Sequence record: MK817115.1
Length of the DNA: 64,000 nucleotides
Direction: 5' to 3' (one strand)
Source: Escherichia phage vB_EcoM_phAPEC6
The position numbers were made by a program, and so were the translations under genes. Below are positions 9,707-59,828 of this stretch, one piece after another. Under the pieces are notes generated by a model. The model was not told where the DNA came from. It searched no databases and worked only from the letters and a program-made list of their open reading frames with translations. Each line of letters begins with the position of its first letter. Position 1 is the stretch's first letter.

Positions 9707-10193
9707 TAAAAGCCCTCTTTAATTCTTTTACATTTTTAATGAATACTTTCATTGCAGAAATCTCAAAAGATAATGTATTAAATTTGCAGTACTTTTTAAA
9801 GTACGACATTATGAATAACATTTTGAGTTCTTTTTCTGTATAAATTAAACTGTTTTGAAAGTAACTTTCTTCGGAAATGTCCGTAAGAAAAGAATAAAAT
9901 GTATTTTGCTTGTGCACAATTTTAATACTATCAGACCAAGATTTGTATGAAACGTAATCAGTACGTGCAAAATCATATAGTGAATTAGATGTATCTGTGT
10001 ATGTTTCCGAGAACACAATCTTATATATCTTATCTTGAATTCGAGAACATATGTACCTATGGTCATCTGTCTCACTGATTGCAATGTATCTATGGAGTAA
10101 ATCTTTATGAGCATTGATGAACTCAAACACTTCTAAACACTCCTTAGCGAACTTCATAGTTTCTCTGTACTTTCGGTTCATTAGTCTCTCCAA
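9690..10193 (-). CDS. family A paralog
   Basis: ORF track 167 aa; motif EESYFQNSLIYT. Confidence 0.7.
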   Translation of the reverse strand: MERLMNRKYRETMKFAKECLEVFEFINAHKDLLHRYIAISETDDHRYICSRIQDKIYKIVFSETYTDTSNSLYDFARTDYVSYKSWSDSIKIVHKQNTFYSFLTDISEESYFQNSLIYTEKELKMLFIMSYFKKYCKFNTLSFEISAMKVFIKNVKELKRAFNVHRK

Positions 10194-10594
10194 ACTTTAC
10201 CAGGGAAGTGTTTCTCGTAGTACTCATCATCACTTAACATATAATCAGGAGTTTCTACTTCTATGGTTTTGAAGATTGTTTCTGGAATGTGTGTGACTTT
10301 ATTGGGTTGTACTTTATGTTCGCGTAAAACCTTCTGTATCGCTCCTAGACGTTGTAAATCGATACATGTAGGAAAGACTAAGCTGTACTGAAATAACTCA
10401 TCAGGGGTCATTATAGACACATCTTTAGCTTGTTTGATTTGATAATTAGTACTAATGAATATATCAAATCCTTGTACAGCATTATAGCTTACATAGGTTG
10501 TTTTATTTTTGTCAATAGGAGCACTTAAACGATATCCATATATCCCGTGTTGGTCAACAAGACAGCGTTGCATAATTTTAATCATTTCTAACAT
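10181..10594 (-). CDS. family A paralog
   Basis: ORF track 137 aa; motif PDELFQYSLVFP. Confidence 0.7.
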   Translation of the reverse strand: MLEMIKIMQRCLVDQHGIYGYRLSAPIDKNKTTYVSYNAVQGFDIFISTNYQIKQAKDVSIMTPDELFQYSLVFPTCIDLQRLGAIQKVLREHKVQPNKVTHIPETIFKTIEVETPDYMLSDDEYYEKHFPGKVWRD

Positions 10595-14134: not shown

Positions 14135-14685
14135 AATAGTTCCTTATACATATGATGTACTTTACAAATCTCATTATAGTATTTCATATCAATGTCATTT
14201 GTATTAAAAACGGAAACAGACAATACTGCTAACTTATCAATTAAGTAATTATTATCGGCGTACTGTTTTAACTTATTGAACATATAGATGCATTTTATAC
14301 TTAATTCATCATGCAACACACTGTTCTGAAAAATATTCTCTTCAGTATTAGGAGATAAGTAATCTTCAATTATATACGATAAACTACTATCGCAATCTTT
14401 ATAGATTGAAATTGATGGATGTAATGTGTCATACATTACACTAAACAGATCACCGTCATATGTGGATATTAAACTATTATTGGAAACAGTAGGATGATAA
14501 TATTTCAGTACTGAAAACTTTGAACAATCAGTGCAGTAAAAATGATCCATCCCTCGACGACTTTCGTATGAGAATAGTTTACTTGTATATTCAATCCCTT
14601 TGGTGCGACGGATTGTTTCATGCATTTCTGCACATTGCATTAAAATTACCATACGTTCAAACGCAAGATCTAAATCATCGTACAT
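14125..14685 (-). CDS. family A paralog
   Basis: ORF track 186 aa; motif EENIFQNSVLHD. Confidence 0.7.
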   Translation of the reverse strand: MYDDLDLAFERMVILMQCAEMHETIRRTKGIEYTSKLFSYESRRGMDHFYCTDCSKFSVLKYYHPTVSNNSLISTYDGDLFSVMYDTLHPSISIYKDCDSSLSYIIEDYLSPNTEENIFQNSVLHDELSIKCIYMFNKLKQYADNNYLIDKLAVLSVSVFNTNDIDMKYYNEICKVHHMYKELLCQ

Positions 14686-14866
14686 AACGGATATCCTTCT
14701 TCAACGAATTAATATATTCCAAAATAACTTGTTCCTGATATTGGGTTCCCAAGTACATCAGTACTTTCAACTCTTTGAATTCAGTACTATATGAGTCTGT
14801 TTGCATCATTCTAGTAGAATATATATTGAATAGTTTAGCAATATCATCTTGGTCTATTATTTTCAT
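14675..14866 (-). CDS. family B paralog (LGTxxQE motif small protein)
   Basis: ORF track 63 aa; motif YLGTQYQEQVILEYINSL. Confidence 0.6.
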   Translation of the reverse strand: MKIIDQDDIAKLFNIYSTRMMQTDSYSTEFKELKVLMYLGTQYQEQVILEYINSLKKDIRYVR

Positions 14867-15062
14867 TAACCCTCTTCTGTATTAGTTCCTGTAAGTGCTG
14901 AATATAACCCTTCATTGCAACATCCTGTTTGTTAGAGCCAACGAAGAACAAGAGCTTAAAGTCATGGTAATCCATTTTTGGTTTAGTAGTGAACCATATG
15001 TCCCACACTGCACTCACAGTTCTCATGTATTCAATTCGATTAAATGTTTTTGAATACTTCAT
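14844..15062 (-). CDS. family B-like paralog
   Basis: ORF track 72 aa; motif FVGSNKQDVAMKGYIQHL. Confidence 0.5.
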   Translation of the reverse strand: MKYSKTFNRIEYMRTVSAVWDIWFTTKPKMDYHDFKLLFFVGSNKQDVAMKGYIQHLQELIQKRVNENNRPR

Positions 15063-27284: not shown

Positions 27285-27677
27285 CTAATCTTTCCATTTA
27301 ATAGGATACTCCTTTCCTTGTACTATATATGACAAAATCCATCCGTAATGAATAGGATGATTTTTGTCTGAATCAGGAATAAAATATAAAGCTGTACTTG
27401 GATTATGACTGAATAAATCTTTATTGTCAAATGTAAAATGTGATAATATAATTTTCCTTGCACTTGGACGAATAACATTCTTAACACTGAACTCTGAACC
27501 TTTGTATTTCTCCGATAATTCAAATAATGCATCTGTAATTAAATCACTGATCTCTTGGATTACAAAATTCTGATAAAATGCATTAATCTCTTTTAACTCT
27601 GTATACAATTCACTTCTGGTATTCAAAAGAAATATTACTTTTTTAAGATCCTGAACTATTTCTGGATTCATATTCAT
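27285..27677 (-). CDS. hypothetical protein (130 aa)
   Basis: ORF track. Confidence 0.55.
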   Translation of the reverse strand: MNMNPEIVQDLKKVIFLLNTRSELYTELKEINAFYQNFVIQEISDLITDALFELSEKYKGSEFSVKNVIRPSARKIILSHFTFDNKDLFSHNPSTALYFIPDSDKNHPIHYGWILSYIVQGKEYPIKWKD

Positions 27678-27909
27678 TTATCTCATTCTGTATCTTAAGC
27701 ATCAAAATTTGCATATTAATTTTTTGTACAAGGTGCTTGATAAATTTCTGTGCCATTTCTTCTTGTTCTTTTGTACCAAGATAAAATAACAGATTAAATT
27801 CTGATAATCGCAAAGAAAAATCTTCATCACCACCCTTTAAACAAAAATCCCTGTACTTTGTAGCGTACAAATATTGGTTTACCTTTTTATAATACCCTGT
27901 GTTTTGCAT
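27643..27909 (-). CDS. family B paralog
   Basis: ORF track 88 aa; motif YLGTKEQEEMAQKFIKHL. Confidence 0.6.
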   Translation of the reverse strand: MQNTGYYKKVNQYLYATKYRDFCLKGGDEDFSLRLSEFNLLFYLGTKEQEEMAQKFIKHLVQKINMQILMLKIQNEINEYESRNSSGS

Positions 27910-28097
27910 ACTATCTCCGTTCGCAACGAATTTATATAATAATGAACAAATTGTTCTTGTGAACGTGTTCCAAGAAAAATAAACATATCAAACTCTGTTG
28001 TTTTTAAATTCAATGCATCTTTTGTAAAATTCCTGTTGAATTCCCTGTACTTTTGGGTCTTCCATTCTTGATTAATTGTCTTGTATATCGATTTCAA
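27879..28097 (-). CDS. family B paralog
   Basis: ORF track 72 aa; motif FLGTRSQEQFVHYYINSL. Confidence 0.6.
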   Translation of the reverse strand: MKSIYKTINQEWKTQKYREFNRNFTKDALNLKTTEFDMFIFLGTRSQEQFVHYYINSLRTEIVCKTQGIIKR

Positions 28098-28693: not shown

Positions 28694-29098
28694 CTAGTAT
28701 TGCACTGTTCTAATGAAAGTACCTTTACTCATGGATTTAAGCTTATGAACCTCTTCCTGCATACCCTTAATTAACCCTAAAGGTATAGGTAAATCATGTA
28801 CTAAGCTGTACTGAAAGTATTCTTCTTCAGATAAAGTACTAACATCTGGAACGCCAATTTTAGTTATATAATCTTGATGTGTTGACCAATAAATTATATC
28901 TTCAGTACTATTGTACTCCCCATATACTGAACAATATTGATGAATATCTTTCCTGTACCCTTGAGCAATAAAGAACTTATCTAATGCATTACCAGCATTA
29001 ATAGAATTTACTTCGATTGTCACAGTACTTGAGCTTGTATAACTCTTAATATTATCAGTACTCTTAATACTCAACGATGTGTTCTTCATAATCACCAT
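28694..29098 (-). CDS. family A paralog
   Basis: ORF track 134 aa; motif EEEYFQYSLVHD. Confidence 0.7.
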   Translation of the reverse strand: MVIMKNTSLSIKSTDNIKSYTSSSTVTIEVNSINAGNALDKFFIAQGYRKDIHQYCSVYGEYNSTEDIIYWSTHQDYITKIGVPDVSTLSEEEYFQYSLVHDLPIPLGLIKGMQEEVHKLKSMSKGTFIRTVQY

Positions 29099-29408
29099 TA
29101 GGCTCCTGTTTAGATTCTTTCATTAGTACTATCATCTTATGTACTAATGGCATAGGAAACTCTAAATCCCATACTAATGATTCCTGAAAGTATTCCTCTG
29201 GTGATAAAGTACTTAAATCTTTAATATCAACGTGCTTGTATATTTTATTTTCGTAATTAACAAATGATATATATAAATCACTAACATAAGAATCATAGGT
29301 AATTGTGAATGGTTTACCCTTGTAATCCATTACATCTCTACATAGACTACTTTTGATATATGTATGTTCAAATGATTTATATACCTTGAGTTGTATATTA
29401 GTTTTCAT
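29064..29408 (-). CDS. family A paralog
   Basis: ORF track 114 aa; motif PEEYFQESLVWD. Confidence 0.7.
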   Translation of the reverse strand: MKTNIQLKVYKSFEHTYIKSSLCRDVMDYKGKPFTITYDSYVSDLYISFVNYENKIYKHVDIKDLSTLSPEEYFQESLVWDLEFPMPLVHKMIVLMKESKQEPNGDYEEHIVEY

Positions 29409-29658
29409 ATTTCTCTTTATTAGCTTGTTTGGTTTTATAGTGAATTAAATCTATTAATGTAATCAAGTACAACGTCAAATAGTACTCTTGTTGATCTGTA
29501 CCTAATGATACAAAGAACTTGTGCTCATAGATTAAAACCTGTTTCTCTTCAAATGGACATTTAATCCTCTGTATAGGCTTAAGTAAATGATAGTACTTAT
29601 TAAATCTATGATACATTTCTAGTTCTGTCAGTACTTTCATATTAAACACATACTCCAT
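29398..29658 (-). CDS. family B paralog
   Basis: ORF track 86 aa; motif SLGTDQQEYYLTLYL. Confidence 0.6.
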   Translation of the reverse strand: MEYVFNMKVLTELEMYHRFNKYYHLLKPIQRIKCPFEEKQVLIYEHKFFVSLGTDQQEYYLTLYLITLIDLIHYKTKQANKEKYEN

Positions 29659-29863
29659 TAGCAGTAGCAGTACTTAAAGCACTCAAATACCTCTGTACGG
29701 CTTGCTCTTGATGATCTGTACCTAAAAGTATATACACCCATAATTCATTGTAGTGTACATCTTCTGTATAAGGGTTGTTGTAACTTTTTGATAATATAGC
29801 ATCAAATTCAGATGCATAATCCCTTGTGAACTTAAACATATCTTGTTGTGTTATGATTCTCAT
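29642..29863 (-). CDS. family B paralog
   Basis: ORF track 73 aa; motif LLGTDHQEQAVQRYL. Confidence 0.65.
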   Translation of the reverse strand: MRIITQQDMFKFTRDYASEFDAILSKSYNNPYTEDVHYNELWVYILLGTDHQEQAVQRYLSALSTATANGVCV

Positions 29864-30075
29864 AACTTTTCCTGTATAAGCTTCTTAAGTATTTCTATGT
29901 GTGAATTAACAGTTCTTTCTTGATGCTGTGTTCCTAAGAGTGTCAGTACTATCATCTCTGAACGCAAAAGATTTTTTTCAAGTTCACTTATATCAGTTCT
30001 TGAATCAAGTGCCATATATTTGTGATTATTCTTCCTGAATAGTGCCAAGTACTCTTGATTTGATATTTCCTTCAT
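29860..30075 (-). CDS. family B paralog
   Basis: ORF track 71 aa; motif LLGTQHQERTVNSHI. Confidence 0.65.
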   Translation of the reverse strand: MKEISNQEYLALFRKNNHKYMALDSRTDISELEKNLLRSEMIVLTLLGTQHQERTVNSHIEILKKLIQEKL

Positions 30076-30302
30076 AGTTTATTCCTGATGCCATTTAAAA
30101 GTGCTCTAATATGCTCATTGACAAATCGCTCTTGGGAATCTGTTCCTAGAGTGAGTAGCAATCTTAAATCTGAACTTTTGATGTGATATTCTAAATCATT
30201 CTTTGATTCTTGCATCAGTTTCTTAAAGGATGAGAAGTTTGCAGCCATTAGTTCAATGTATTCTGCTGTTCCTAGGGGTTTGTGTGTGTGCTGTCTGTGC
30301 AT
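30072..30302 (-). CDS. family B paralog
   Basis: ORF track 76 aa; motif TLGTDSQERFVNEHI. Confidence 0.65.
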   Translation of the reverse strand: MHRQHTHKPLGTAEYIELMAANFSSFKKLMQESKNDLEYHIKSSDLRLLLTLGTDSQERFVNEHIRALLNGIRNKL

Positions 30303-30514
30303 TTTAATTGTATTACCCTTTTGAGTGTATTAATGTAATTATACACATTGGCTTCTTGATAGTTTGTTCCTAGAGTAGCTTGAACGTAGATTTCATTTAA
30401 CTTAATAATTTTATCAGAATCTGGAAGTTTTGATGTGTTAATGGCAAATAACTTCGAAAACAGTCCATTTATGATTGTTAGGTATTCTACTTCGGTAATG
30501 ATTCGCATTTGCAT
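30272..30514 (-). CDS. family B paralog
   Basis: ORF track 80 aa; motif TLGTNYQEANVYNYI. Confidence 0.65.
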   Translation of the reverse strand: MQMRIITEVEYLTIINGLFSKLFAINTSKLPDSDKIIKLNEIYVQATLGTNYQEANVYNYINTLKRVIQLKCTDSTHTNP

Positions 30515-30726
30515 TGGATAAACCTTTTTAGTTCATTGATGTAATCATTAATATTGCATTCTTGATAGTTAGTCCCTAGTGTAGCTTGAACATAGATTTC
30601 ACTTACTAGAATACTTATTTCATCATCTGGTAATTTCATGCTTTTTGTTATAAACAGCTTTAGAATTAAACTACTTAATAGTTGGTTGTATTCTGTGGGT
30701 GAAATGATTTTCATTTGCATTTGCAT
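30487..30726 (-). CDS. family B paralog
   Basis: ORF track 79 aa; motif TLGTNYQECNINDYI. Confidence 0.65.
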   Translation of the reverse strand: MQMQMKIISPTEYNQLLSSLILKLFITKSMKLPDDEISILVSEIYVQATLGTNYQECNINDYINELKRFIQCKCESLPK

Positions 30727-30932
30727 TTTCTCAGTACTGATTCTTTAAGTTCATTAATGTAGCACTCTACATATTCTTCTTGTAGGTTTGTTCCGATATG
30801 TAACAGTACTCTTAAATCTGCTCTCAGTACTTCTTTATCATCTTCATCTATATCAGACAGTGTTATGTTTAAGAATTTACTTGAACTCTCTATAAGTAAT
30901 ATTACTGAATCACCTTTGCTTAAAATTTTCAT
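30711..30932 (-). CDS. family B paralog
   Basis: ORF track 73 aa; motif HIGTNLQEEYVECYI. Confidence 0.65.
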   Translation of the reverse strand: MKILSKGDSVILLIESSSKFLNITLSDIDEDDKEVLRADLRVLLHIGTNLQEEYVECYINELKESVLRKCKCK

Positions 30933-31140
30933 AATCTCTTTTTGCTTTCCTCGCCAAAAGGTACATATACGATTCTTCGTATTGTGCTTGGTAGTTTGTG
31001 TTTAAGAGTCGAAACAACTTCTGTTCTGCTAGAACGAGTTGCTTATCTTCATAACAACGATAGCGTATCAACTTTTTGTATTCGATGTTGATTACATCCA
31101 TTACTATAAGCCCATGTTCATCATCTGTCAAGTGTTTCAT
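30910..31140 (-). CDS. family B paralog
   Basis: ORF track 76 aa; motif LLNTNYQAQYEESYM. Confidence 0.6.
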   Translation of the reverse strand: MKHLTDDEHGLIVMDVINIEYKKLIRYRCYEDKQLVLAEQKLFRLLNTNYQAQYEESYMYLLARKAKRDYENFKQR

Positions 31141-31379
31141 GCATTTTTTCTTTTTCTTATATGTTTAGTTAAAAGGTATATTAGTTTTCTATTGTATTCT
31201 TCCTGATAGTTTGTTCCTAATAGTGCAAGAAGTTTTGCTTCAACTAAAGCTAATTGACGTTCTTCAAATGTGTGTTCCAGTATGTACTTGGGGTTTGATT
31301 TTTTAGCGTAAGCACTATTAGTCTTCATTACAATCTTATGATATTCATTAGCAGTTAGGATTTTTAAATACTTGATCAT
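31137..31379 (-). CDS. family B paralog
   Basis: ORF track 80 aa; motif LLGTNYQEEYNRKLI. Confidence 0.65.
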   Translation of the reverse strand: MIKYLKILTANEYHKIVMKTNSAYAKKSNPKYILEHTFEERQLALVEAKLLALLGTNYQEEYNRKLIYLLTKHIRKRKNA

Positions 31380-31599
31380 GTATCTTTTCCTTTATAGAGA
31401 ATTTAAGATATCGAAGCATACTTTCAATGTAATACTCTTGTCTGTCAGTGCCAAGAAAGTACATGAGTTGAATGTATAAAACTTCTGCACTCCTTTCCGC
31501 TGGAGACTTGTTTGTGTCGTTTGGAAGTTGATTTGTATGTTTTCTTGATTTAATTAGTCGTTCTTTTAACTCATCGTCTGTTAAGTATTTCATTTGCAT
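31348..31599 (-). CDS. family B paralog
   Basis: ORF track 83 aa; motif FLGTDRQEYYIESML. Confidence 0.65.
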   Translation of the reverse strand: MQMKYLTDDELKERLIKSRKHTNQLPNDTNKSPAERSAEVLYIQLMYFLGTDRQEYYIESMLRYLKFSIKEKIHDQVFKNPNC

Positions 31600-31825
31600 T
31601 TACTTTTTCCTTAATAGTGATTTTAAGATATCTAATCATACGTGCAACATATTCCTCTTGTCTATCAGTTCCCAGAAGATATGGTAGTGATTGGAATAAT
31701 ACTTCTGCACTCCTTTCTGCTGGGGTTTGGTTTAGGTCAATTGGACGTTTATTGGTATATCTCTTGGCACGAACTAATCTCTCGACGTATTCATTATAGG
31801 TTAAGTATATCATTTCATTTTGCAT
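31571..31825 (-). CDS. family B paralog
   Basis: ORF track 84 aa; motif LLGTDRQEEYVARMI. Confidence 0.65.
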   Translation of the reverse strand: MQNEMIYLTYNEYVERLVRAKRYTNKRPIDLNQTPAERSAEVLFQSLPYLLGTDRQEEYVARMIRYLKITIKEKVNANEILNRR

Positions 31826-32045
31826 TTACTTTTTCCTTAATACTCATTATAAGATGTTCAATCATATTTTGAACCATAAATTCTTGTTTATCAGTTCCAA
31901 GAACGTATGGTAGCTTCTGAAACAATACATTTGCAGATACTTCAGATATTGATTGATTTGGACCGAACTTAAGAGTAATGTTTTTGGTTTTTAACATCTT
32001 CTCTTGAAATTCTTCATTCGTTAAGTATATCATTTCATTTTGCAT
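31815..32045 (-). CDS. family B paralog
   Basis: ORF track 76 aa; motif VLGTDKQEFMVQNMI. Confidence 0.65.
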   Translation of the reverse strand: MQNEMIYLTNEEFQEKMLKTKNITLKFGPNQSISEVSANVLFQKLPYVLGTDKQEFMVQNMIEHLIMSIKEKVNAK

Positions 32046-32261
32046 TTACATTCTCTCATATATATTTTGGGTTAAAAGGTCAATCCAGATTTCCACATAT
32101 CGTTGTTGGTGTTGCGTCCCTAACAGTACACCCAACTTAGCTTCACACTCTAATAACAATCTGGTTTTGTATGGTAGACTTTGGAATCCTATAGTAGCAT
32201 CTAATTTGGTAATTGCATAGTTGATTCGGATGAATCTTTCTTGCAATGTGATGTTGATCAT
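32046..32261 (-). CDS. family B paralog
   Basis: ORF track 71 aa; motif LLGTQHQQRYVEIWI. Confidence 0.65.
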   Translation of the reverse strand: MINITLQERFIRINYAITKLDATIGFQSLPYKTRLLLECEAKLGVLLGTQHQQRYVEIWIDLLTQNIYERM

Positions 32262-32548
32262 TTCTTAGTACACCTCAGTGGTTGGGTCATTTGATGAAAG
32301 TACAGCTTACCTCTGATTTCCAGTAGCAACTCCGCGATTAAGCGATTTACTTCTGTATCTTGATAGTTTGTTCCTAAGAATACACCCATCTTTAACTCAC
32401 GCATCATAATCATTTTCTTACTGTGTTGAATTTCTGGGTTGTGATAGATTGTATTACGTTTGTGCGTAATTTTTGTCATACGCTCGGTATATTCATCTTT
32501 ACTTAAATTGATCATTTGCATGTTCATCAACCTCACATTTATTTTCAA
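32258..32548 (-). CDS. family B paralog
   Basis: ORF track 96 aa; motif FLGTNYQDTEVNRLI. Confidence 0.65.
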   Translation of the reverse strand: MKINVRLMNMQMINLSKDEYTERMTKITHKRNTIYHNPEIQHSKKMIMMRELKMGVFLGTNYQDTEVNRLIAELLLEIRGKLYFHQMTQPLRCTKK

Positions 32549-32550
32549 TA

Positions 32551-32817
32551 CTATTCTTTAGTTTGTAGATATAGTTTTCTTCCAATATATCTCTTAAGTG
32601 CGATTATGTATTCATCTACATAATACTCCTGATAGTTTGTTCCTATGAATGCACCCACCTTTAACTCAAGTTTCATAATCATCTTATTTCCGTGTTTAAT
32701 GACTTCTCCGTGATGGATTTCATTAAGTCCAGGTGCAATTTTTACCAGGCGTTCTTTATATTTTGCTTGAGATAATTTAATCATTTTCATGTTAATTACC
32801 CTTACATTTATTTTCAA
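32551..32817 (-). CDS. family B paralog
   Basis: ORF track 88 aa; motif FIGTNYQEYYVDEYI. Confidence 0.65.
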   Translation of the reverse strand: MKINVRVINMKMIKLSQAKYKERLVKIAPGLNEIHHGEVIKHGNKMIMKLELKVGAFIGTNYQEYYVDEYIIALKRYIGRKLYLQTKE

Positions 32818-33022
32818 TACTATTCATGAGTTCTATAAGATAGTTTTCTACCTTACCTTCCTGATAGTTAGTCCCTAGGAAGTTGCACAACACGGCTTCT
32901 ATGATTTTGATTTTCCTGATATCAGGCTTCAATCTTTTGTTATTGAATATTTGAATCCTTATATCTCTGGATGCATTTAAACGTTTTTGATATTCATGGT
33001 AAGTTAAATTAATCATTTTCAT
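32792..33022 (-). CDS. family B paralog
   Basis: ORF track 76 aa; motif FLGTNYQEGKVENYL. Confidence 0.65.
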   Translation of the reverse strand: MKMINLTYHEYQKRLNASRDIRIQIFNNKRLKPDIRKIKIIEAVLCNFLGTNYQEGKVENYLIELMNSIENKCKGN

Positions 33023-33237
33023 TTACGTTTAACCTCTCGCTGGAGGGCATCAATTAACATCAGTACAGCATTCTCTTGATAGTTTGTTCCTAAGACTGAA
33101 AGCATCTTTATCTCATTTACTAAAATCAACTTCTTTGAGGGTTCAATAATGTGACTATCATAAACGGCCTTACGTGCTGGATAAGTTTTCGCCAGTATAA
33201 CATAAAATTCGTCTTTACTTAAATTAATCATTTGCAT
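33019..33237 (-). CDS. family B paralog
   Basis: ORF track 72 aa; motif VLGTNYQENAVLMLI. Confidence 0.65.
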   Translation of the reverse strand: MQMINLSKDEFYVILAKTYPARKAVYDSHIIEPSKKLILVNEIKMLSVLGTNYQENAVLMLIDALQREVKRK

Positions 33238-33446
33238 TTACTTTTAACCTCTTTCTGTAGAGCGTCAATCCATAGATCCACATACATTTGTTGATAGTTT
33301 GTGCCTAAGAGTGCACCTACATAGAGTTCAGTTACTAGTGCGTGCTTAAGGTTAGCTTGGATGCTCTTATCGCTTGATAAGATTTTCCTTCTGCTGGTGC
33401 ATGTTTTCAGGAGTCTGATGTATTCAAAGCCTTGTAAATTTCTCAT
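33228..33446 (-). CDS. family B paralog
   Basis: ORF track 72 aa; motif LLGTNYQQMYVDLWI. Confidence 0.65.
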   Translation of the reverse strand: MRNLQGFEYIRLLKTCTSRRKILSSDKSIQANLKHALVTELYVGALLGTNYQQMYVDLWIDALQKEVKSKCK

Positions 33447-33658
33447 ATTTTGGATACCACCTTGTTACGTAAGGCACTTAACAATACGTCAGTGTAGATG
33501 TTTTGATAGTTTGTCCCTACGAAAGCACCCAACTTCATTTCAGCTATTATAACACATTTGTCCTCTTGTGCAATAGATTTGTTTAACACAATACTATACA
33601 CTTTTGATTTGATAGTTTGTAACCTCCAATGATACTGAAACTCATTTAGTGTTATCAT
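33443..33658 (-). CDS. family B paralog
   Basis: ORF track 71 aa; motif FVGTNYQNIYTDVLL. Confidence 0.65.
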   Translation of the reverse strand: MITLNEFQYHWRLQTIKSKVYSIVLNKSIAQEDKCVIIAEMKLGAFVGTNYQNIYTDVLLSALRNKVVSKI

Positions 33659-33893
33659 TCTCTCGTCTCCATATCTCGGTTCTAATGTGTTGACATTGTG
33701 CTTCGATGAACATATCTATTGATTTGGCAATTGCTTTTTTATCAGTGCCTGTCATCAGTACAAGCATCTCTGCCTCACTATGAATTAAACGCATGATATC
33801 ATAGGGTAATATTTCAGATACAGTGTCATAGTGTTTCTGTGCCAGTGTCTGTAATAGTTTACAATACATTTTGTGATTTAGTCTGTGTCGCAT
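33642..33893 (-). CDS. family B-like paralog (divergent)
   Basis: ORF track 83 aa; motif LMTGTDKKAIAKSID. Confidence 0.5.
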   Translation of the reverse strand: MRHRLNHKMYCKLLQTLAQKHYDTVSEILPYDIMRLIHSEAEMLVLMTGTDKKAIAKSIDMFIEAQCQHIRTEIWRRENDNTK

Positions 33894-34150
33894 TGTTTAT
33901 TCCATTCTCTTCTGGCTTGACGGGTTTTATCTGATATTTCGTTTCTCAATGCAGCGATATATCGTAGAGTGAACAGTTCTTGATAGTTAGTCCCTATGAA
34001 TTTATTAAGATATACATCAGCGTTGACGATATCAGCTTCACGGGAATTATAAAGTTTATTGTTCGTGCGGAGGGTGTTTAGAAGAGAGAAGAGGGCAGTC
34101 TGATACTCCACTCCTGATAAAATCTTCATGTTTTGTGAGCAAATAATCAT
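33878..34150 (-). CDS. family B paralog
   Basis: ORF track 90 aa; motif FIGTNYQELFTLRYI; start probably internal Met. Confidence 0.6.
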   Translation of the reverse strand: MIICSQNMKILSGVEYQTALFSLLNTLRTNNKLYNSREADIVNADVYLNKFIGTNYQELFTLRYIAALRNEISDKTRQARREWNKQCDTD

Positions 34151-34370
34151 CTAGTTTATCCTGTATAACATTCGTTAATTGTTCGATATATTCTGTGCAA
34201 AACTTATCTTGATATTGAGTCCCCATAAAGTACAGCAACCATAGCTCATTAACTTTAGCTCGCATTTGGTTCCATGTAAGGCTGGGGTCACCGTAGACTA
34301 TCCTTGTGATGGGGGTTAGTTTACGAATTATAGTTTCAAATTCATCATCAGTTAAGTGTTTCATTTGCAT
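34056..34370 (-). CDS. family B paralog (C-terminally extended)
   Basis: ORF track 104 aa; motif FMGTQYQDKFCTEYI; overlaps next gene. Confidence 0.55.
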   Translation of the reverse strand: MQMKHLTDDEFETIIRKLTPITRIVYGDPSLTWNQMRAKVNELWLLYFMGTQYQDKFCTEYIEQLTNVIQDKLDDYLLTKHEDFIRSGVSDCPLLSSKHPPHEQ

Positions 34371-34579
34371 TTGTCCCTTATTAAATCAGTGAGGGCAACT
34401 ATGTGTGCAACAACATACTCTTCCTGAAAGTTCGTCCCCAGTACAGCCATCATGCGTATATCGGTGGTGTTTATCCTGTGTTCCCTTACACATAAACCTT
34501 CTGTGTGAGGAAGTGTAAAATATTTGTTTATTGCAGCAACGATAATTTTATTCTTCTCGGAGTTACTTAAATGTTTCAT
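34361..34579 (-). CDS. family B paralog
   Basis: ORF track 72 aa; motif VLGTNFQEEYVVAHI. Confidence 0.65.
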   Translation of the reverse strand: MKHLSNSEKNKIIVAAINKYFTLPHTEGLCVREHRINTTDIRMMAVLGTNFQEEYVVAHIVALTDLIRDKCK

Positions 34580-34788
34580 AGTTTACTCCTGATATAATTC
34601 TGAAGTGCAATTAAGTATTCCCCTACATAATACACCTGAAAGTCTGTATCAAGGAATGCACCCATAAGTAAATCTTTTTCTAATACCCTTGATAAGTTAA
34701 GGTCTGCATTTGAAAGGTATATAAGTAAGATTTCACCCTGTGCGGAATTGAAACGTTTCTTATATTCTTCTGGTGTTAAAAAAATCAT
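34576..34788 (-). CDS. family B paralog
   Basis: ORF track 70 aa; motif FLDTDFQVYYVGEYL. Confidence 0.6.
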   Translation of the reverse strand: MIFLTPEEYKKRFNSAQGEILLIYLSNADLNLSRVLEKDLLMGAFLDTDFQVYYVGEYLIALQNYIRSKL

Positions 34789-35000
34789 AATTTGCTCCTG
34801 ATATATTTCTCAAGAGATGACAAATACTTTTCCTCATAATACTTCTGATAGTCTGTTCCTAAGAATGCACCCAATAGTATATCATTTTCCAATACCTCGG
34901 CTAAGTTTAAATCAGAAGTCTCTTCGTATATTATGAGGATTTCAAGTTGTCTGGCAGCGATGCGTTCAGTATATTGATATGAGTTTTCTATAATAATCAT
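34785..35000 (-). CDS. family B paralog
   Basis: ORF track 71 aa; motif FLGTDYQKYYEEKYL. Confidence 0.65.
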   Translation of the reverse strand: MIIIENSYQYTERIAARQLEILIIYEETSDLNLAEVLENDILLGAFLGTDYQKYYEEKYLSSLEKYIRSKL

Positions 35001-35206
35001 AATTTACTCTTTATATCTTGAATTAAAAATCGAATCCATTCTTCAACATAATCTTCCTGATGGTTTGTGTTCAGTACAGCCAACATGCGGATCTCTGCTC
35101 TTGCAACTTCAATTTCAGTTTTAGGAAGGTCTTTGCTGATATCCACCATTAAGTCCATGTATTTCAAGATAAGACCGTATGATTGGGTTCGTGTTATAGT
35201 TTTCAT
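34997..35206 (-). CDS. family B paralog
   Basis: ORF track 69 aa; motif VLNTNHQEDYVEEWI. Confidence 0.6.
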   Translation of the reverse strand: MKTITRTQSYGLILKYMDLMVDISKDLPKTEIEVARAEIRMLAVLNTNHQEDYVEEWIRFLIQDIKSKL

Positions 35207-35403
35207 TGTTTCCTCGTGGACAATATTTTATTTTTCAATGTATCCATATATTGAATCACCCATCTTTCCTGATAGTTAGTTCCCAAAGTAATCAAAAGGT
35301 ATAACTCCATTCGTTCTACGTGTGTGTCTGTATTATAAATCTTTGTGAAGTTTTTACGTAACAGTGATTGATATTCTTCTTTATTTAAAATACGCATTTT
35401 CAT
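35203..35403 (-). CDS. family B paralog
   Basis: ORF track 66 aa; motif TLGTNYQERWVIQYM. Confidence 0.65.
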   Translation of the reverse strand: MKMRILNKEEYQSLLRKNFTKIYNTDTHVERMELYLLITLGTNYQERWVIQYMDTLKNKILSTRKQ

Positions 35404-35597
35404 AGTTTACTCGTTATATCTTCAATTAAATACCAAATCCAATCGTTGACATACCTTTCCTGAAAGTTAGTTCCAATGAATAGTGCCATAATTAATTCAC
35501 GCTTATAGGCAATACCACGGTCATGGGACTTATACATTATCATAGCCATGTTATTGATAAGTCTTTCGTGGTGCTGTTCTTTAGTTAAAATACGCAT
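35400..35597 (-). CDS. family B paralog (first gene of array)
   Basis: ORF track 35400..35627; motif FIGTNFQERYVNDWI; start set to Met of MRILTKEQ which follows SD AAGGGAG. Confidence 0.65.
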   Translation of the reverse strand: MRILTKEQHHERLINNMAMIMYKSHDRGIAYKRELIMALFIGTNFQERYVNDWIWYLIEDITSKL

Positions 35598-35627
35598 AGG
35601 GACTCCCTTAAAATTATTATCGATCAT

Positions 35628-35846
35628 ATTTTATACGATTCATATAAAAAGTCAATAACATTTTATTCGTAATACCCCTTTATCGAAGTCGCTAAGGTTA
35701 CCCGCCCTTTAGCCCCCTACGCATTTTGCCATAGTCCAATCCCTTTTATTTCAAAAAAGTCAAGGGATTACCTATGCATTTTTTTAACGCATAATTTTAA
35801 AAACGCCTTGACTTTTTTCTGAATCAGTACTAGATCCCTTTACGCA
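35628..35846 (-). promoter_or_regulatory. regulatory region upstream of family B array (promoter-like TTGACT-N16-TAAAAT plus inverted and direct repeats)
   Basis: minus-strand TTGACT..TAAAAT about 40 nt upstream of array start; inverted repeat AATCCCTT..AAGGGATT; repeated cctttacgcatt-like motif three times. Confidence 0.4.
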
Positions 35847-39458: not shown

Positions 39459-40043
39459 TTATCGTGTTATAGTTACGGCTTTTACATCACGCTTTTTATA
39501 GTACTGATTCCAGATATTGCGGGTTAAACCGTAATCAAGTACTTTAATAAGTCCATTACGATCCTGGCCGATATTCTGTTTTCTGATATCTCTTATCGTT
39601 AGTGTTGATAATGTATCATCGACGTGTTGTAGTGCATCAGCAAAGCGGTGCTGGCGTTCAATGGCATTACGTTTAATATTGTACTTTAATTCGTTGCACG
39701 CGTTAACGTGCTTCACACTGCCTTTACTTGCAGTACTCAACCGATCCATAACGATAAACATATTATCAGGATCGCATAAATGCATATGCACCTTTGCAAA
39801 GTACTGTTTCAATTGAGGGCGGTCATAGTCTAAAAAATTCCATACCTTACATTCAGTTTCATTTTGTTCTACACCCGCATCACAATTGGCGACCTTAATC
39901 ACTAACCGATCATTTAAAGCGAATACGATACGGGAAGAACCCGCCCCGATGATCTCCAGGCCAGCTAACCGACAAGCTGAAAGGATCTCTTTGTTGGTTT
40001 CCATTTCTGACAGTGTACGGATGAATTTAGTATAATTACGCAT
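39459..40043 (-). CDS. putative Ser/Thr protein kinase-like protein
   Basis: ORF track 39459..40100, start moved to Met behind SD AAGGAG; Gly-rich loop IGAGSSRIVF, VIKV lysine, catalytic-loop-like RDIRKQNIG, DYG (DFG-like) motif. Confidence 0.5.
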   Translation of the reverse strand: MRNYTKFIRTLSEMETNKEILSACRLAGLEIIGAGSSRIVFALNDRLVIKVANCDAGVEQNETECKVWNFLDYDRPQLKQYFAKVHMHLCDPDNMFIVMDRLSTASKGSVKHVNACNELKYNIKRNAIERQHRFADALQHVDDTLSTLTIRDIRKQNIGQDRNGLIKVLDYGLTRNIWNQYYKKRDVKAVTITR

Positions 40044-40074
40044 TGCATGTTCTCCTTGAGTTAATGAAACTATC

Positions 40075-40317
40075 TTACAGTACTTTACTATCAATGGCAA
40101 CCACTTTTTTCACACTAACCGCGTGAATCACTTCCTTAGTGTTTTTAGTACTGAATACTTTCGCTGTTCCTTGTTCTACTGCAATGCGATAACGACCGTT
40201 AACATCAACCATATTAATAAAGTCCGGTGTACTAAACCGAGTAGTACGGCATTTCAGTACTGTTAACAATTCCACCAGCGATGTAGTTTCTTTGATACGT
40301 TTTTCTAAAGTAATCAT
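40075..40317 (-). CDS. hypothetical protein (80 aa)
   Basis: ORF track; promoter TTGACA-N17-TACTAT upstream. Confidence 0.6.
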   Translation of the reverse strand: MITLEKRIKETTSLVELLTVLKCRTTRFSTPDFINMVDVNGRYRIAVEQGTAKVFSTKNTKEVIHAVSVKKVVAIDSKVL

Positions 40318-43750: not shown

Positions 43751-44107
43751 CTACGATAAAATCATGATAGGATATTCACTATCGATCAGTACTTCAAATC
43801 CAAAACTTTCATACCATTCTTTAAGATTAAAGGCGTTATCTTCTCCCGTATCGCATTCTAAAATGATACAATCTGAATCATCGGCGGCATCAATAAAGGC
43901 GTTCATCAATTCCGTACCTTCACCATTACCCCGACTAGCAGGATCAACATAAAGAGAATCAATAAACGCTACACGGTCATAATCAAGATCCGGTGCAATG
44001 ATTCCACGTTTAACAAACCAGTACTGCAATTGTGCTACTTTGCCCTGTACTTGATAGCCAGTGATCTCGCCATTGTCAGTAGTACGCGTGGTATGTTGTA
44101 TTCCCAT
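43751..44107 (-). CDS. GNAT-family N-acetyltransferase-like protein
   Basis: ORF track 118 aa; acetyl-CoA-binding-like RGNGEGTELM and C-terminal WYESFGFE resembling GNAT motifs A/B. Confidence 0.45.
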   Translation of the reverse strand: MGIQHTTRTTDNGEITGYQVQGKVAQLQYWFVKRGIIAPDLDYDRVAFIDSLYVDPASRGNGEGTELMNAFIDAADDSDCIILECDTGEDNAFNLKEWYESFGFEVLIDSEYPIMILS

Positions 44108-44170: not shown

Positions 44171-44428
44171 TTATCTCATAGATCTATGCCAACAATTACG
44201 CGGATCTCTTTTAAAAGTACTATCATGATCCTCCTGGCAAGTTATGCAATACTTACATCCCTTAACAGCCTGGCGGCGATTCTCAGGGATTTTATCGCCA
44301 CAGTCGAGGCAATGTATCAGTGATTCTATTTGTGCGTTAATTTGCTTTCTAGCGTGGTTTACGGCGGCCTGAATCACTGCGTTAATCTCGTCTTGCTCGG
44401 CCCCGTCTTTCGCGAATCCTACAGCCAT
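44171..44428 (-). CDS. TraR/DksA-type C4 zinc-finger protein
   Basis: ORF track 85 aa; CLDCGDKIPENRRQAVKGCKYCITCQ (CxxC-N17-CxxC, as in TraR/DksA family). Confidence 0.45.
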   Translation of the reverse strand: MAVGFAKDGAEQDEINAVIQAAVNHARKQINAQIESLIHCLDCGDKIPENRRQAVKGCKYCITCQEDHDSTFKRDPRNCWHRSMR

Positions 44429-56033: not shown

Positions 56034-56225
56034 TTACTTTCTATATATAAGCATTAAGATATAGTAGTACTGATTATACTGTACATTCTCTTTAATATTA
56101 TAAGGGTCTATAGCAATCTCGGTACATCTGTTAAATGCATATCTATTAAATGCCAGTGGAATTATAGATCTAATCCATACTTGTTCATTTTCTTTTAGTT
56201 TACTTATATAGAAGTTTTTATACAT
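56034..56225 (-). CDS. family C paralog (small protein, N-term M.KEFY, C-term LIxRY)
   Basis: ORF track 63 aa; MYKNFYISKL...ILMLIYRK. Confidence 0.6.
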   Translation of the reverse strand: MYKNFYISKLKENEQVWIRSIIPLAFNRYAFNRCTEIAIDPYNIKENVQYNQYYYILMLIYRK

Positions 56226-56240
56226 AGTATTCTCTATTAA

Positions 56241-56423
56241 TTAATATGATAGTACTAGTGTTAGTACTGAGCACAATTGTTCTTTATAGTTCTTAGGGTA
56301 TATAGAATCTTTTATGCACTCATTGAAGTGCCATAGGTATAATCTTGGGTCGCATTCTTTATATATTCTTACGGGGACGAATGTTAGTTTTCTTATATAG
56401 AATTCTTTATGTTCTTTATTCAT
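56241..56423 (-). CDS. family C paralog
   Basis: ORF track 60 aa; MNKEHKEFYIRKL... Confidence 0.6.
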   Translation of the reverse strand: MNKEHKEFYIRKLTFVPVRIYKECDPRLYLWHFNECIKDSIYPKNYKEQLCSVLTLVLSY

Positions 56424-56424
56424 A

Positions 56425-56613
56425 TTAGTACCTGAATATAAGTAGGATTATGTTATAGTACTGGTTAGTACTGCAATGATTCTCTATACATCGATTAACA
56501 GTTATGGAATAGCTATATCTGGCGTAAGCATTATCCAGCGGGATTTTACATTGAGCACTTAGAGAAAGTACAGTAGGTAGTGTATTCAAATAGAAGTCTT
56601 TGTAATTATTCAT
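56425..56613 (-). CDS. family C paralog
   Basis: ORF track 62 aa; MNNYKDFYLNTL...IILLIFRY. Confidence 0.6.
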   Translation of the reverse strand: MNNYKDFYLNTLPTVLSLSAQCKIPLDNAYARYSYSITVNRCIENHCSTNQYYNIILLIFRY

Positions 56614-56815
56614 ACAGGAATAGTATACCTATGATACCTGAGTACAGGTTAGTACTGTTACCATCTTCGTTTGCGTTTAAAGTCATTTGAATACAATTAT
56701 TGTAGCATACTCTGCCGAAAAATGTATTAGTACTTAAAGGTGGAGTAGTCCTTAGAAACATTTGTTCTGAGGGGCTTATGTATTTGGAGTAGAATTCTTT
56801 ATGTTCTTTATTCAT
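56606..56815 (-). CDS. family C paralog
   Basis: ORF track 69 aa; MNKEHKEFYSKYIS...GILFLYE. Confidence 0.6.
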   Translation of the reverse strand: MNKEHKEFYSKYISPSEQMFLRTTPPLSTNTFFGRVCYNNCIQMTLNANEDGNSTNLYSGIIGILFLYE

Positions 56816-56820
56816 ATTAG

Positions 56821-57006
56821 TTAGTGTCTGTATATAAGTAATAGTAAGAATACGTACTGCACATCTTCATCTTTAGTATTGAGTACTGTACGTATTGCGT
56901 CATTAAACAAGAATATAGTACTTGGGTCATGAGAATTTAAAGGGGTTCTGGGTACGGCATGTTTGTAGTTCCCTTTAACAAATTGTGTGTAGTATTCTCT
57001 ATGCAT
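56821..57006 (-). CDS. family C paralog
   Basis: ORF track 61 aa; MHREYYTQFV...LLLLIYRH. Confidence 0.6.
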   Translation of the reverse strand: MHREYYTQFVKGNYKHAVPRTPLNSHDPSTIFLFNDAIRTVLNTKDEDVQYVFLLLLIYRH

Positions 57007-57007
57007 A

Positions 57008-57193
57008 TTAGTACCTATATATTAGGGCGATAATGTAGTACAATTCATATGGAATGTAATTTGGGGTGATCGCACACTGTGTATGGTAAATGAATTGTTC
57101 GGTATTTTTCTTATCCTTGATATCTATTGGGATTAGTGGTATAAGCATTTGGGAGTTTAGATCGAGATGGCTTAAGTAGAATTCTTTATGCAT
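57008..57193 (-). CDS. family C paralog
   Basis: ORF track 61 aa; MHKEFYLSHL...IIALIYRY. Confidence 0.6.
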   Translation of the reverse strand: MHKEFYLSHLDLNSQMLIPLIPIDIKDKKNTEQFIYHTQCAITPNYIPYELYYIIALIYRY

Positions 57194-57202
57194 ATTGTTC
57201 TT

Positions 57203-57391
57203 TTAGAATACGAAAGCTAGGTACAGGGTATGATACAGTACTCGATGATAGCTGTCAAAATCTAGTATACATGCTTTAGTGCACATAGTAAAGTACACTT
57301 TATCGTTTTGTGCATTGATACCGCGAGGTTTATCTAATAGATTAGTACTGAGGTACATTGGGAAATATTTTGTGTAGTATTCTTTATGCAT
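57203..57391 (-). CDS. family C paralog
   Basis: ORF track 57203..57436; start moved to MHKEYYTKYF Met by paralog alignment. Confidence 0.55.
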   Translation of the reverse strand: MHKEYYTKYFPMYLSTNLLDKPRGINAQNDKVYFTMCTKACILDFDSYHRVLYHTLYLAFVF

Positions 57392-57392
57392 A

Positions 57393-57575
57393 TTAGTACC
57401 TGAATATAAGTAGGATAGTGTTATATAGCTGGTCATAACTACTACTATTTTCTATACTTCGTTCTATGCAGTTATTGAATCCCAGTACTGCCAAATCGTT
57501 ATCCATAGGGACTTTGTATCTGGCGTAGTGTTCAAAAATGCTGGGGAGAAATTGTGTGTAGTATTCTTTGTGCAT
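57393..57575 (-). CDS. family C paralog
   Basis: ORF track 60 aa; MHKEYYTQFL...ILLIFRY. Confidence 0.6.
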   Translation of the reverse strand: MHKEYYTQFLPSIFEHYARYKVPMDNDLAVLGFNNCIERSIENSSSYDQLYNTILLIFRY

Positions 57576-57576
57576 A

Positions 57577-57762
57577 TTAGTACCTATATATTAGTAAAAG
57601 GATGTGATACAGTACTCGATTATAGTCTTCAATATATATCGAGGATTTAGTGCACTGAATGAAGTAGTCTTTTTCGTAGTTTTTTTCTATACCCAATGGT
57701 TCTGTTGGTACAAGGTGTTGGAGATACATTGGGAGTTTCTCTATGTAGTATTCTTTATACAT
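57577..57762 (-). CDS. family C paralog
   Basis: ORF track 61 aa; MYKEYYIEKL...LLLIYRY. Confidence 0.6.
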   Translation of the reverse strand: MYKEYYIEKLPMYLQHLVPTEPLGIEKNYEKDYFIQCTKSSIYIEDYNRVLYHILLLIYRY

Positions 57763-57771
57763 ATATTATCC

Positions 57772-57972
57772 TTAGTACTGGAACGCAAGGTACAGGGTGT
57801 GGTAAAGTTGTACTTGATAATTGTTTTCATTAGCTTCTTCATTAAGTACTTGTTCAGTACATGTACGGAAGTAATCAGCTTCATATATACAGTCAATACC
57901 GCGAGGTTCATCTTCTAATAGATTTCCTTGTAGAAACTTTGGTAGTTCTTTTATGTAGAATTCTTTATACAT
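57772..57972 (-). CDS. family C paralog
   Basis: ORF track 57772..58035; start moved to MYKEFYIKEL Met by paralog alignment. Confidence 0.55.
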   Translation of the reverse strand: MYKEFYIKELPKFLQGNLLEDEPRGIDCIYEADYFRTCTEQVLNEEANENNYQVQLYHTLYLAFQY

Positions 57973-58636
57973 AGTTTGTAATATACGTAATGAGGTGATG
58001 CATTTTCTTATCAGTACTGATAATTTCCTGTACATGTTTTGTCAGATTGTACGCGTTTTTATAGAGTACTGGATTATCGATTACAGTACTGTACATGAAT
58101 AGTTCTTCTTCCTGTAGTTCTTTGTGTTCTAGTTCTTTGAGGAATTCTACAATTGATTTAGTTTCTTCTGTACGTTGTGCTTGCCAGAAGTGCATATTCT
58201 CGTGTACTTTTTTTGCACCTATACTGTATATACCACCCATTTGGAATTGTGCTGTATTGACATCGTGGGAGGTGTTACAATTCCCGAAGAAGTATGTATT
58301 CCCGAAGTATAGCATTAAAGTGCACGGGGTATTATCCAACTGCATATGGATGATGAAGGATGCGTTCTTTAGTACCTTTGTGCTCGTATTAGTACTCAAT
58401 ACTTTTAAATCAGTATTATAGATATTCATATAATGAACAGCTATATTATTTTTCTTCATGTACAATCCCAGGTTCTTTGATACGTTAACTCCATTTGTAC
58501 TGGATTTTTCCTTTTTATTTCGTTTCTTTAGTACATTCGGGTGATACGTATATGCAGATGTAACTGATTCTGCCTGAATACTATTGAGGTACTTAAAGTG
58601 CTTAAGGTATTGTTTGCTGTGTGCATTAAGTTTCAT
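57965..58636 (-). CDS. hypothetical protein (223 aa) with family A-like motif, embedded in family C array
   Basis: ORF track; motif QEEELFMYSTVIDNP; SD AGGAAA. Confidence 0.6.
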   Translation of the reverse strand: MKLNAHSKQYLKHFKYLNSIQAESVTSAYTYHPNVLKKRNKKEKSSTNGVNVSKNLGLYMKKNNIAVHYMNIYNTDLKVLSTNTSTKVLKNASFIIHMQLDNTPCTLMLYFGNTYFFGNCNTSHDVNTAQFQMGGIYSIGAKKVHENMHFWQAQRTEETKSIVEFLKELEHKELQEEELFMYSTVIDNPVLYKNAYNLTKHVQEIISTDKKMHHLITYITNYV

Positions 58637-58646
58637 TTGGTTTCCT

Positions 58647-58826
58647 TTATATAGATGCCAGGGCGAGGATTTCCCTGTAGGGATTATCTTGTGTTAGTAC
58701 AGCATAAATGCAGTTATTGAGATTAATATTTTTAGTACTTTTTGTTCCTAGTTTGTAGTACTTCACGAAGGTGTCGTACATGAAACGGTCTTTTATGGTT
58801 ATACGTTCTCTATAGAATTGTTGCAT
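58647..58826 (-). CDS. family C-like paralog (59 aa)
   Basis: own reading: MQQFYRERITIKDRFMYD...ILALASI; just below track cutoff. Confidence 0.4.
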   Translation of the reverse strand: MQQFYRERITIKDRFMYDTFVKYYKLGTKSTKNINLNNCIYAVLTQDNPYREILALASI

Positions 58827-58834
58827 AGTATTCC

Positions 58835-59017: not shown

Positions 59018-59025
59018 TTTCTTCC

Positions 59026-59420: not shown

Positions 59421-59430
59421 ATAGCACCTT

Positions 59431-59827: not shown

Positions 59828-59828
59828 A

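Follow-up and report, generated by a model that had tools for sequence, protein, structure and literature searches.

What is a row of 28 small, mutually related genes doing beside the terminal repeat of a jumbo coliphage? The question is raised by a stretch of 64,000 nucleotides (nt) from Escherichia phage vB_EcoM_phAPEC6 (record MK817115.1), here called the window, to which all positions refer unless another record is named. An earlier note, made from the letters alone, had described in it about 28 back-to-back genes for proteins of about 70 amino acids (aa), here called family B, with four related outliers, a shared LGT[ND]xQE-type motif, and stops that overlap or abut the next start, and had suggested a single polycistronic unit encoding diversified small binders or regulators. 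The analysis presented here finds family B to be real, well defined and ancient, and the descriptive part of that account holds except for the start of gene 1. For its function we favour, with about an even chance of being right, a set of binding proteins that do not duplicate one another and act early against host factors or defences.

The interval 29398-35627 is exactly filled by 28 consecutive open reading frames (ORFs) of 66-104 aa, all on the minus strand. If the longest ORFs are taken, neighbouring genes are separated by a median of -10 nt over the 27 junctions, with no gap wider than 40 nt; when the starts are aligned to the family profile, 12 junctions become 4-nt ATGA overlaps. One correction concerns gene 1, whose ORF (35400-35627) reaches the upper edge of the array. 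Its probable start is the ATG at 35597 (MRILTKEQ...) and not 35627, because an AAGGGAG Shine-Dalgarno sequence precedes 35597 and the upstream ATG is missing in fEgEco12 and WPEC3. Gene 1 thus occupies 35400-35597 and is followed by gene 2 (35203-35403), gene 3 (34997-35206, with NT in place of GT in the motif), gene 4 (34785-35000, encoding an acidic protein with an isoelectric point (pI) of 4.4), gene 5 (34576-34788, with DT in place of GT), gene 6 (34361-34579) and gene 7 (34056-34370), whose 104-aa product has a C-terminal extension that overlaps gene 8 (33878-34150, probable start 34129). Gene 9 (33642-33893) encodes the most divergent member, with an insertion after GTD. The series continues with genes 10 (33443-33658), 11 (33228-33446), 12 (33019-33237) and 13 (32792-33022), then genes 14 (32551-32817) and 15 (32258-32548), which have probable ATG starts near 32784 and near 32515 respectively, and genes 16 (32046-32261), 17 (31815-32045), 18 (31571-31825), 19 (31348-31599) and 20 (31137-31379). 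Gene 21 (30910-31140) again has NT in place of GT, and the array ends with genes 22 (30711-30932), 23 (30487-30726), 24 (30272-30514), 25 (30072-30302), 26 (29860-30075), 27 (29642-29863) and 28 (29398-29658, probable start 29640).

Alignment of the 28 array proteins and the four outliers with MAFFT gave the consensus M.xL...EY...E......LGTNxQE..V..YI..L...I..K, in which G, T, Q and L are present in at least 90% of the 32 members. A hidden Markov model (HMM) built from the array members only recovers exactly the four outliers, with E-values from 5e-12 to 1e-5, and nothing further at E<=10 among the 429 six-frame ORFs of the window. These dispersed members also lie on the minus strand, at 27879-28097 (E 1.5e-10), 27643-27909 (E 1.6e-6), 14844-15062 (E 1e-5, with GS in place of GT) and 14675-14866 (E 5e-12). 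The earlier note had reasoned that the array would fall if the ORFs were not conserved or the motif were compositional. The ORFs are intact in nine genomes, and the array contains 25 instances of the motif, every one on the minus strand, whereas shuffled sequence would be expected to yield 0.19. Tandem Repeats Finder detected no DNA-level tandem repeat in the array and Rfam gave no match; the absence of such a repeat places the repetition at the protein level.

What kind of protein is repeated? An AlphaFold2 model of the gene 12 product, calculated from the 32 window sequences, is a three-helix bundle with a predicted local distance difference test score (pLDDT) of 97.1 and a predicted template modelling score of 0.82, and a second run from a non-overlapping alignment of 22 divergent metagenomic members returned the same topology (pLDDT 97.6). 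In both models a one-residue beta bridge links the N-terminal segment to the T of the GT motif, and LGT[ND]xQE forms the connection between helices 2 and 3 of the predicted bundle. The conserved columns are those of the hydrophobic core, spaced in heptads, together with T/S5-x-x-E8 where helix 1 begins, E40, K70 and G48-T49-N/D50-x-Q52-E53; the i,i+3 polar pairs among them may act as helix-capping boxes, which they resemble. Nearly all other columns exceed 3 bits of entropy, so that the predicted surface is hypervariable around a conserved core and turn. The pI ranges from 4.4 to 9.9 (median 8.6), lying above 7.8 in 20 of the 32 members, and K and R abound at the C-terminal ends. As enzymes the proteins would be too small and too variable, and they have no conserved catalytic-type site. 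By eye LGTxxQE recalls the turn of lambda Cro, and a helix-turn-helix reading was considered and rejected: the hydrophobic spacing differs, searches gave no match to a helix-turn-helix profile and the modelled bundle runs up-down-up.

In database searches 30 of the 32 members match phrog_4148 (PHROG 4148, 'unknown function') at E<=1e-3, the best at 9e-27, and 10 also match phrog_28039; the annotation of phage SHEFM2K already tags its copies as phrog 4148. No informative likeness to a solved structure or Pfam family was found, a fold search of BFVD returned only members of the family, PADLOC, NCBIfam and Rfam gave nothing meaningful for it, and inspection of the sequences revealed no membrane or signal features. 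Arrays of immunity proteins against polymorphic toxins were also considered; no member matches a Pfam Imm family and the neighbouring genes are without toxin domains. The virion proteome of phAPEC6 (62 proteins) holds nothing of 7.5-10 kDa, although mass spectrometry can miss small proteins (PMC7247149 Table 1).

Where does the array lie in the genome? The window belongs to an Asteriusvirus jumbo coliphage (the PBECO4/121Q/slurp01 group), with slurp01, SHEFM2K and G17 at 94-96% identity to it, PBECO4 at about 93% and 121Q at about 87%; in the records of these five phages the family-B genes are labelled hypothetical. For the phage fEgEco12, direct terminal repeats (DTRs) of 20,993 bp (DTR at 1-20,993) have been determined with PhageTerm and restriction digests (PMC13070987), and a DTR is annotated at 1-21,525 in the record of vB_Ec-M-J. 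Using blastn, position 1 of fEgEco12 corresponds to 55770 of the window and position 20,993 to about 35695, and window 61591-55771 aligns with the right end of the fEgEco12 unique region. Since the repeat and the right unique end are both present, the window is drawn on a map in which the two repeat copies have been collapsed. In both fEgEco12 and vB_Ec-M-J the first family-B gene begins 98 nt past the inner repeat boundary. By these boundaries the array lies outside the terminal repeat, and, as mapped by homology, it forms the opening block of genes in the unique genome, 98 nt beyond the inner DTR edge. On one strand the order is therefore family C (a second array of small genes, described below), terminal repeat, family B and further paralog families. 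The same order of a repeat-like region of spaced genes followed by an array was found in two metagenomic lineages, represented by contigs L009/L010 and L011/L012.

How would such an array be expressed? A sigma70-type promoter-like site, TTGACT-16-TAAAAT, lies before it in the intergenic space at 35628-35655 on the minus strand and matches the host-type consensus at 10 of 12 positions; in eight of nine relatives its -35 hexamer is invariant and the -10 element is TATAAAAT or TATATTAT. Between the last repeat gene and this site is a terminator-like nested hairpin (35753-35818, minus strand, 13-bp stem AAAAAAGUCAAGG/CCUUGACUUUUUU) with a minimum free energy of -27 kcal/mol (z = -4.3), a stability equalled by none of 200 shuffles. 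It looks like a bidirectional terminator: the 13-bp stem AAAAAAGTCAAGG/CCTTGACTTTTTT is perfect, an A-run and a T-run stand at its flanks, and it lies about 60 nt within the inner repeat boundary. Hairpin, promoter-like site and the AAGGGAG before ATG 35597 are all kept in eight of nine relatives. In the record of Salmonella phage SD-15_S21 (L008, about 10025-10200) 73 nt are missing, covering the array promoter and the gene 1 Shine-Dalgarno sequence; the loss may be genuine or may reflect faulty assembly of the 326-kb record. Anti-Shine-Dalgarno pairing of -4 kcal/mol or stronger was calculated for 19 of the 28 array starts, against 22% of random positions, and AGGAG inside the array often codes for the conserved C-terminal R-S of the preceding protein.

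The gap-free arrangement and the 12 ATGA overlaps make a polycistronic, translationally coupled unit likely. At its lower end the array runs without a gap into two phrog_13866 genes of another paralog family (28694-29408, minus strand, with an 'ELFQESLV' motif), which overlap gene 28 by 11 nt at 29398-29408, and the next promoter-like site, TTGACA-17-TATAGT, is at 28692-28664. Judged from these signals, the transcription unit probably continues through both genes to 28694. The earlier note had the unit driven from 35628-35846, and the promoter-like site at 35655-35628, the hairpin upstream of it, the Shine-Dalgarno sequence and the ATGA overlaps are in keeping with this; the part in need of amendment is the extent, which probably goes beyond the array. 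Internal promoters were considered and set aside: five coding-strand matches of at least 10/12 occur (the best at 31131-31103, 11/12), all are intragenic and the overall count equals the shuffled expectation. The best reading, with consensus matches as its sole basis, is that of a single early, translationally coupled polycistronic mRNA. The roughly 40 sigma70 consensus promoters in the adjoining repeat mark the neighbourhood as one that would be read by the host polymerase.

How have the genes evolved? The comparison covered nine genomes with 247 array genes, sorted into ortholog groups at >=70% identity. Copy number in these related genomes, which the earlier note had wished to see compared, is 23-30. 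Of the 36 ortholog groups, 16 are common to all nine genomes and six more occur in eight, and only four of the 247 copies are truncated. The pooled ratio of non-synonymous to synonymous change (dN/dS, or omega) of orthologs is 0.35-0.40 (about 0.36), and by site class, from counts along allele spanning trees, it is 0.23 in the core, 0.17 in the motif and 0.44 at the surface. Positive selection was looked for and no alignment column has an omega above 1. Identity is mosaic from gene to gene, one gene being 100% identical to one relative and 60-70% identical to another. A candidate mechanism of chimera formation within genes, at the conserved motif, was discarded, as no inter-genome pair combines a half of >=90% identity with a diverged half, and the difference in identity between N- and C-terminal halves exceeds 0.35 in only 1.2% of pairs. 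The absence of chimeric genes indicates exchange in whole-gene units. Orthologs are mostly retained under purifying selection and are swapped between lineages as whole genes or blocks.

Paralogs within the array are at most 56% identical (mean 25%). Identity is higher between adjacent paralogs (32%) than between distant ones (25%; permutation p<1e-4), and for 16 of the 28 the best paralog is a neighbour. That neighbours are most alike while identity never exceeds 56% points to old tandem duplication followed by divergence and retention. Recent amplification of the 'accordion' type predicts near-identical copies, which were not seen, and copy-number differences between isolates, which were.

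How far does the family extend? An exhaustive HMM search of 1.84 billion representative sequences found only 92 clusters, almost all of 57-96 aa, and the named matches all come from records of E. coli, Escherichia phages or Salmonella phages. Many members sit in contigs of about 350 kb labelled Escherichia coli, which are whole Asteriusvirus genomes within isolate assemblies; this agrees with the high 'persistent virulent phage' fraction given for Asteriusvirus (preprint 10.1101/2024.12.31.630880). The complete E. coli genomes of RefSeq gave no family-B match, and a search of IMG/VR with two divergent members found nothing. Metagenomic contig L009, with 65% nt identity at the boundary, has 12 contiguous and five scattered members. 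Contig L011 is 92-93% identical to the window at the nt level through the repeat, up to 35578, and L012 is about 83% identical over a short stretch up to the same boundary. In both, identity to the window then falls to undetectable within a few bases of the array start, and the left arm downstream of the array is also divergent (69% at one spot). Of the 21 members of the L011 array, 19 share no more than 55% identity with any copy in the nine arrays. The drop at the array start together with the divergent downstream arm suggests a different version of the left arm, an alternative haplotype, attached to the same terminal repeat.

A fusion was observed in EC.P1 (L013, 2501-3310) and in UB, where a 269-aa ORF, a single coding sequence in the EC.P1 annotation, joins a family-B domain to a domain of about 200 aa. 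The only homologues of the latter are hypothetical proteins of RaK2-like Klebsiella phages. RaK2 and K64-1 were considered as distant relatives and discounted, the EC.P1 fusion matching them by tblastn in its C-terminal domain only and not in its family-B part. A Rosetta-stone inference from the fusion was likewise abandoned: its C-terminal domain is uncharacterised and unrelated to the window gene beside the corresponding outlier.

From the computed coding, fold, position, signals and selection we infer timing, polycistronic expression, binding and targets as follows. Host RNA polymerase would transcribe the array early, immediately following the terminal-repeat genes, into a single polycistronic mRNA whose translation is coupled. 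The products would be non-enzymatic binding modules, a common stable scaffold showing some 30 different surfaces, and each surface would recognise a different host protein, for takeover or to counter defences, or perhaps a protein of a competitor. A repertoire of binders is the most economical account of intact and distinct paralogs that are not seen in virions, have an early-type position and share a stable scaffold with a variable surface. The earlier suggestion of diversified small binders or regulators fits the conserved core, the hypervariable surface and the retention of paralogs under purifying selection; binding itself is what we infer from these features. A stronger version, in which the roughly 30 members form an arsenal, each paralog neutralising a different host defence or factor, the whole being the largest single-family anti-host repertoire known in a phage and swapped as haplotypes, is more tentative, and we consider it rather doubtful. 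The swapping of alternative haplotypes is suggested by L011, which keeps the repeat at 93% nt identity while 19 of its 21 array members do not exceed 55% identity with any of those in the nine arrays.

Several points weigh against a repertoire of early host-directed binders. No sequence or fold homology was found between family B and characterised anti-defence proteins (Acr, Ocr, Tad, Gad, Dmd and others) or host-takeover proteins. With no site at a dN/dS above 1, an arms race is not demonstrated. The omega of family B is about twice that of seven flanking repeat genes (0.12-0.24), but the downstream paralog families, at 0.18-0.39, resemble it, so that fast evolution belongs to the whole left arm and not to family B alone. 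The promoter-like site matches at only 10/12 positions, and over this AT-rich region as a whole the number of such matches, 50, is no higher than the 52 expected. The conserved polar residues, instead of being purely structural, might together make up a functional site that all members share. Finally, the literature yielded no infected-cell transcriptome or proteome of any Asteriusvirus.

Might the proteins act on nucleic acids instead? Small nucleic-acid-binding or transcription-modulating factors, tuning host or phage transcription or coating DNA or RNA, would suit the early-type location of the array, the median pI of 8.6, the majority of members with a pI above 7.8 and the K/R-rich C-terminal ends, and such a role has been suggested for a protein expansion of phage G (Iyer et al., 2021, PMC7824862). 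Acidic members nevertheless exist and a DNA-binding fold was not seen, and we regard this explanation as unlikely, though worth keeping in mind.

It is improbable that the array is for the most part filler that the phage could do without, left by tandem duplication once the capsid had enlarged (as in the ratchet proposed by Hua et al., 2017) and weak or redundant in function at most. Hua et al. did read a tandem array in 121Q as duplication (PMC5646251), and the variation of copy number between 23 and 30, the raised omega relative to the flanking repeat genes and the absence of any known function are what such an origin might leave behind. Against this stand an omega of 0.36, well below 1, with constraint even at the surface (0.44), the scarcity of truncated copies (4/247), the presence of 22 of the 36 ortholog groups in at least eight of the nine genomes, and the age and distinctness of paralogs that are nowhere more than 56% identical. 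The array has also been kept in lineages where its members are down to about 40-55% identity.

There is similarly little chance that family B serves phage-phage competition, superinfection exclusion or a carrier or persistent state and not the defeat of host defences. The frequency of Asteriusvirus genomes in E. coli isolate assemblies and the high 'persistent phage' fraction (preprint 10.1101/2024.12.31.630880) accord with it, and exclusion functions would be well placed at an early locus; nothing, however, ties family B itself to persistence, its members lack membrane and signal features, and complete E. coli genomes contain no match. Less credible again is the co-assembly of the roughly 30 paralogs, in near-equimolar amounts, into a hetero-oligomeric intracellular structure, with coupling serving stoichiometry. 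The ATGA overlaps and the lack of intergenic gaps would be explained, and the core and pole that all members conserve could serve as a shared interface, but copy number and membership vary between isolates in a way that is hard to square with a fixed assembly, the pI is very heterogeneous and nothing of family-B size was detected in virions. A role at the DNA level, as iterons or as packaging or recombination signals with incidental ORFs, could draw on the periodicity of about 215-230 bp beside the genome terminus, and is effectively refuted by dN/dS (synonymous exceeding non-synonymous change) and by ORFs intact on one strand in nine genomes, together with the lack of a DNA-level tandem repeat or Rfam match and the high-confidence predicted fold.

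The surroundings of the array hold further families of small genes. The direct terminal repeat, placed by homology at 35695-55770 (minus strand), contains about 49 small genes, most of them equipped with a consensus sigma70 promoter of their own, separated by a median gap of 81 nt and accompanied by about 40 intergenic sigma70 matches. These promoters fall into two classes, TTGACA-16-TATAAT (many at 12/12) and TTGCAA-16-TATAAT, and the GC content of the repeat is 0.37-0.40, compared with 0.30-0.35 in the flanking arms. Its recognisable genes include those for a GNAT acetyltransferase and a DksA/TraR-type zinc-finger protein, at 43751-44107 and 44171-44428. Relatives annotate a Ser/Thr kinase (equivalent to window 39459-40100, which has no Pfam match here) and a 'spackle' protein, and in the repeat-like early region of two metagenomic contigs (L009 4832-5083 and L011 2237-2491) a gene for a protein of about 83 aa matches a ParE-like (toxin) Pfam family.

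On the far side of the repeat is family C, 18 minus-strand genes at 56034-60256 for proteins of about 60-75 aa (phrog_11711) with the consensus ..HKEFY...L...FN.CI...Y..IL.LI..Y. Kinship between families B and C was considered and rejected, an hhalign probability of 1.4% indicating that they are unrelated. As family C lies at the far right end of the unique genome, just before the repeat, the repeat has a tandem array of small paralogs on either side. Window 1-29408 consists largely of two more families, one of about 105-135 aa with the motif (E)ELFQESLV(W/F)D (phrog_13866) and one of about 140-200 aa (e.g. phrog_9317), both on the minus strand, with overlapping junctions and no known function. 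In all, about 100 of the roughly 170 genes of the window belong to four paralog families that are exclusive to Asteriusvirus-like phages and have no known function, and family B is the largest and best defined of the four.

If the members prove to be target-specific inhibitors, some 36 ortholog groups would constitute natural mini-binders against E. coli proteins or defence systems and would give a concrete reason for the 'dark' DNA of jumbo phages; if they are dispensable, the array would support the growth of jumbo genomes by neutral duplication. In either case family B is an unusually clean and experimentally tractable case, its members having confidently predicted folds, being individually conserved and standing at the expected earliest position after the repeat.

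How, then, does family B compare with known systems? We file it as a lineage-specific expansion of small early phage proteins. The family itself was already catalogued (PHROG 4148, with phrog_28039), and its repeat-adjacent position, fold and evolutionary pattern are described here. The literature on it amounts to a possible single sentence of Hua et al. (2017, mBio, PMC5646251), which mentions a tandem array of similar genes in 121Q, read as duplication, and refers also to phage G. In the region compared, 121Q has 23 + 2 family-B genes that are not very similar to each other, and the sentence may for that reason mean another paralog family. The expansion of about 35 zinc ribbons in phage G (Iyer et al., 2021, PMC7824862) is likewise that of one very small protein family in a jumbo phage, with a function that has been guessed. 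Its proteins are zinc ribbons, however, whereas family B is predicted to be a metal-free three-helix bundle, and phage and host are unrelated.

A second comparison is with modules at genome ends. The family-B array lies outside the repeat and is one family in one block, whereas the pre-early and takeover modules of T5, SPO1 and Twort-like phages lie inside it and consist of mostly mutually unrelated genes in many short units. The T5 pre-early genes, SPO1 genes 37-60 and the Twort-like tre genes are small genes, mostly of unknown function, at the repeat end of the genome, which are expressed from host-type promoters in the first minutes of infection. In the window the closer analogue of these modules is the repeat itself (35695-55770). 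The families MGF110, MGF360 and MGF505 of African swine fever virus and the host-range families of poxviruses are tandem paralogs near terminal repeats that vary between isolates and are implicated in host range and immune evasion. Family B is like them in being a tandem paralog array beside a terminal repeat with variable copy number and content, although the viruses and the proteins are unrelated, and it differs from the 'gene accordions' of poxviruses in that its copies are old and divergent.

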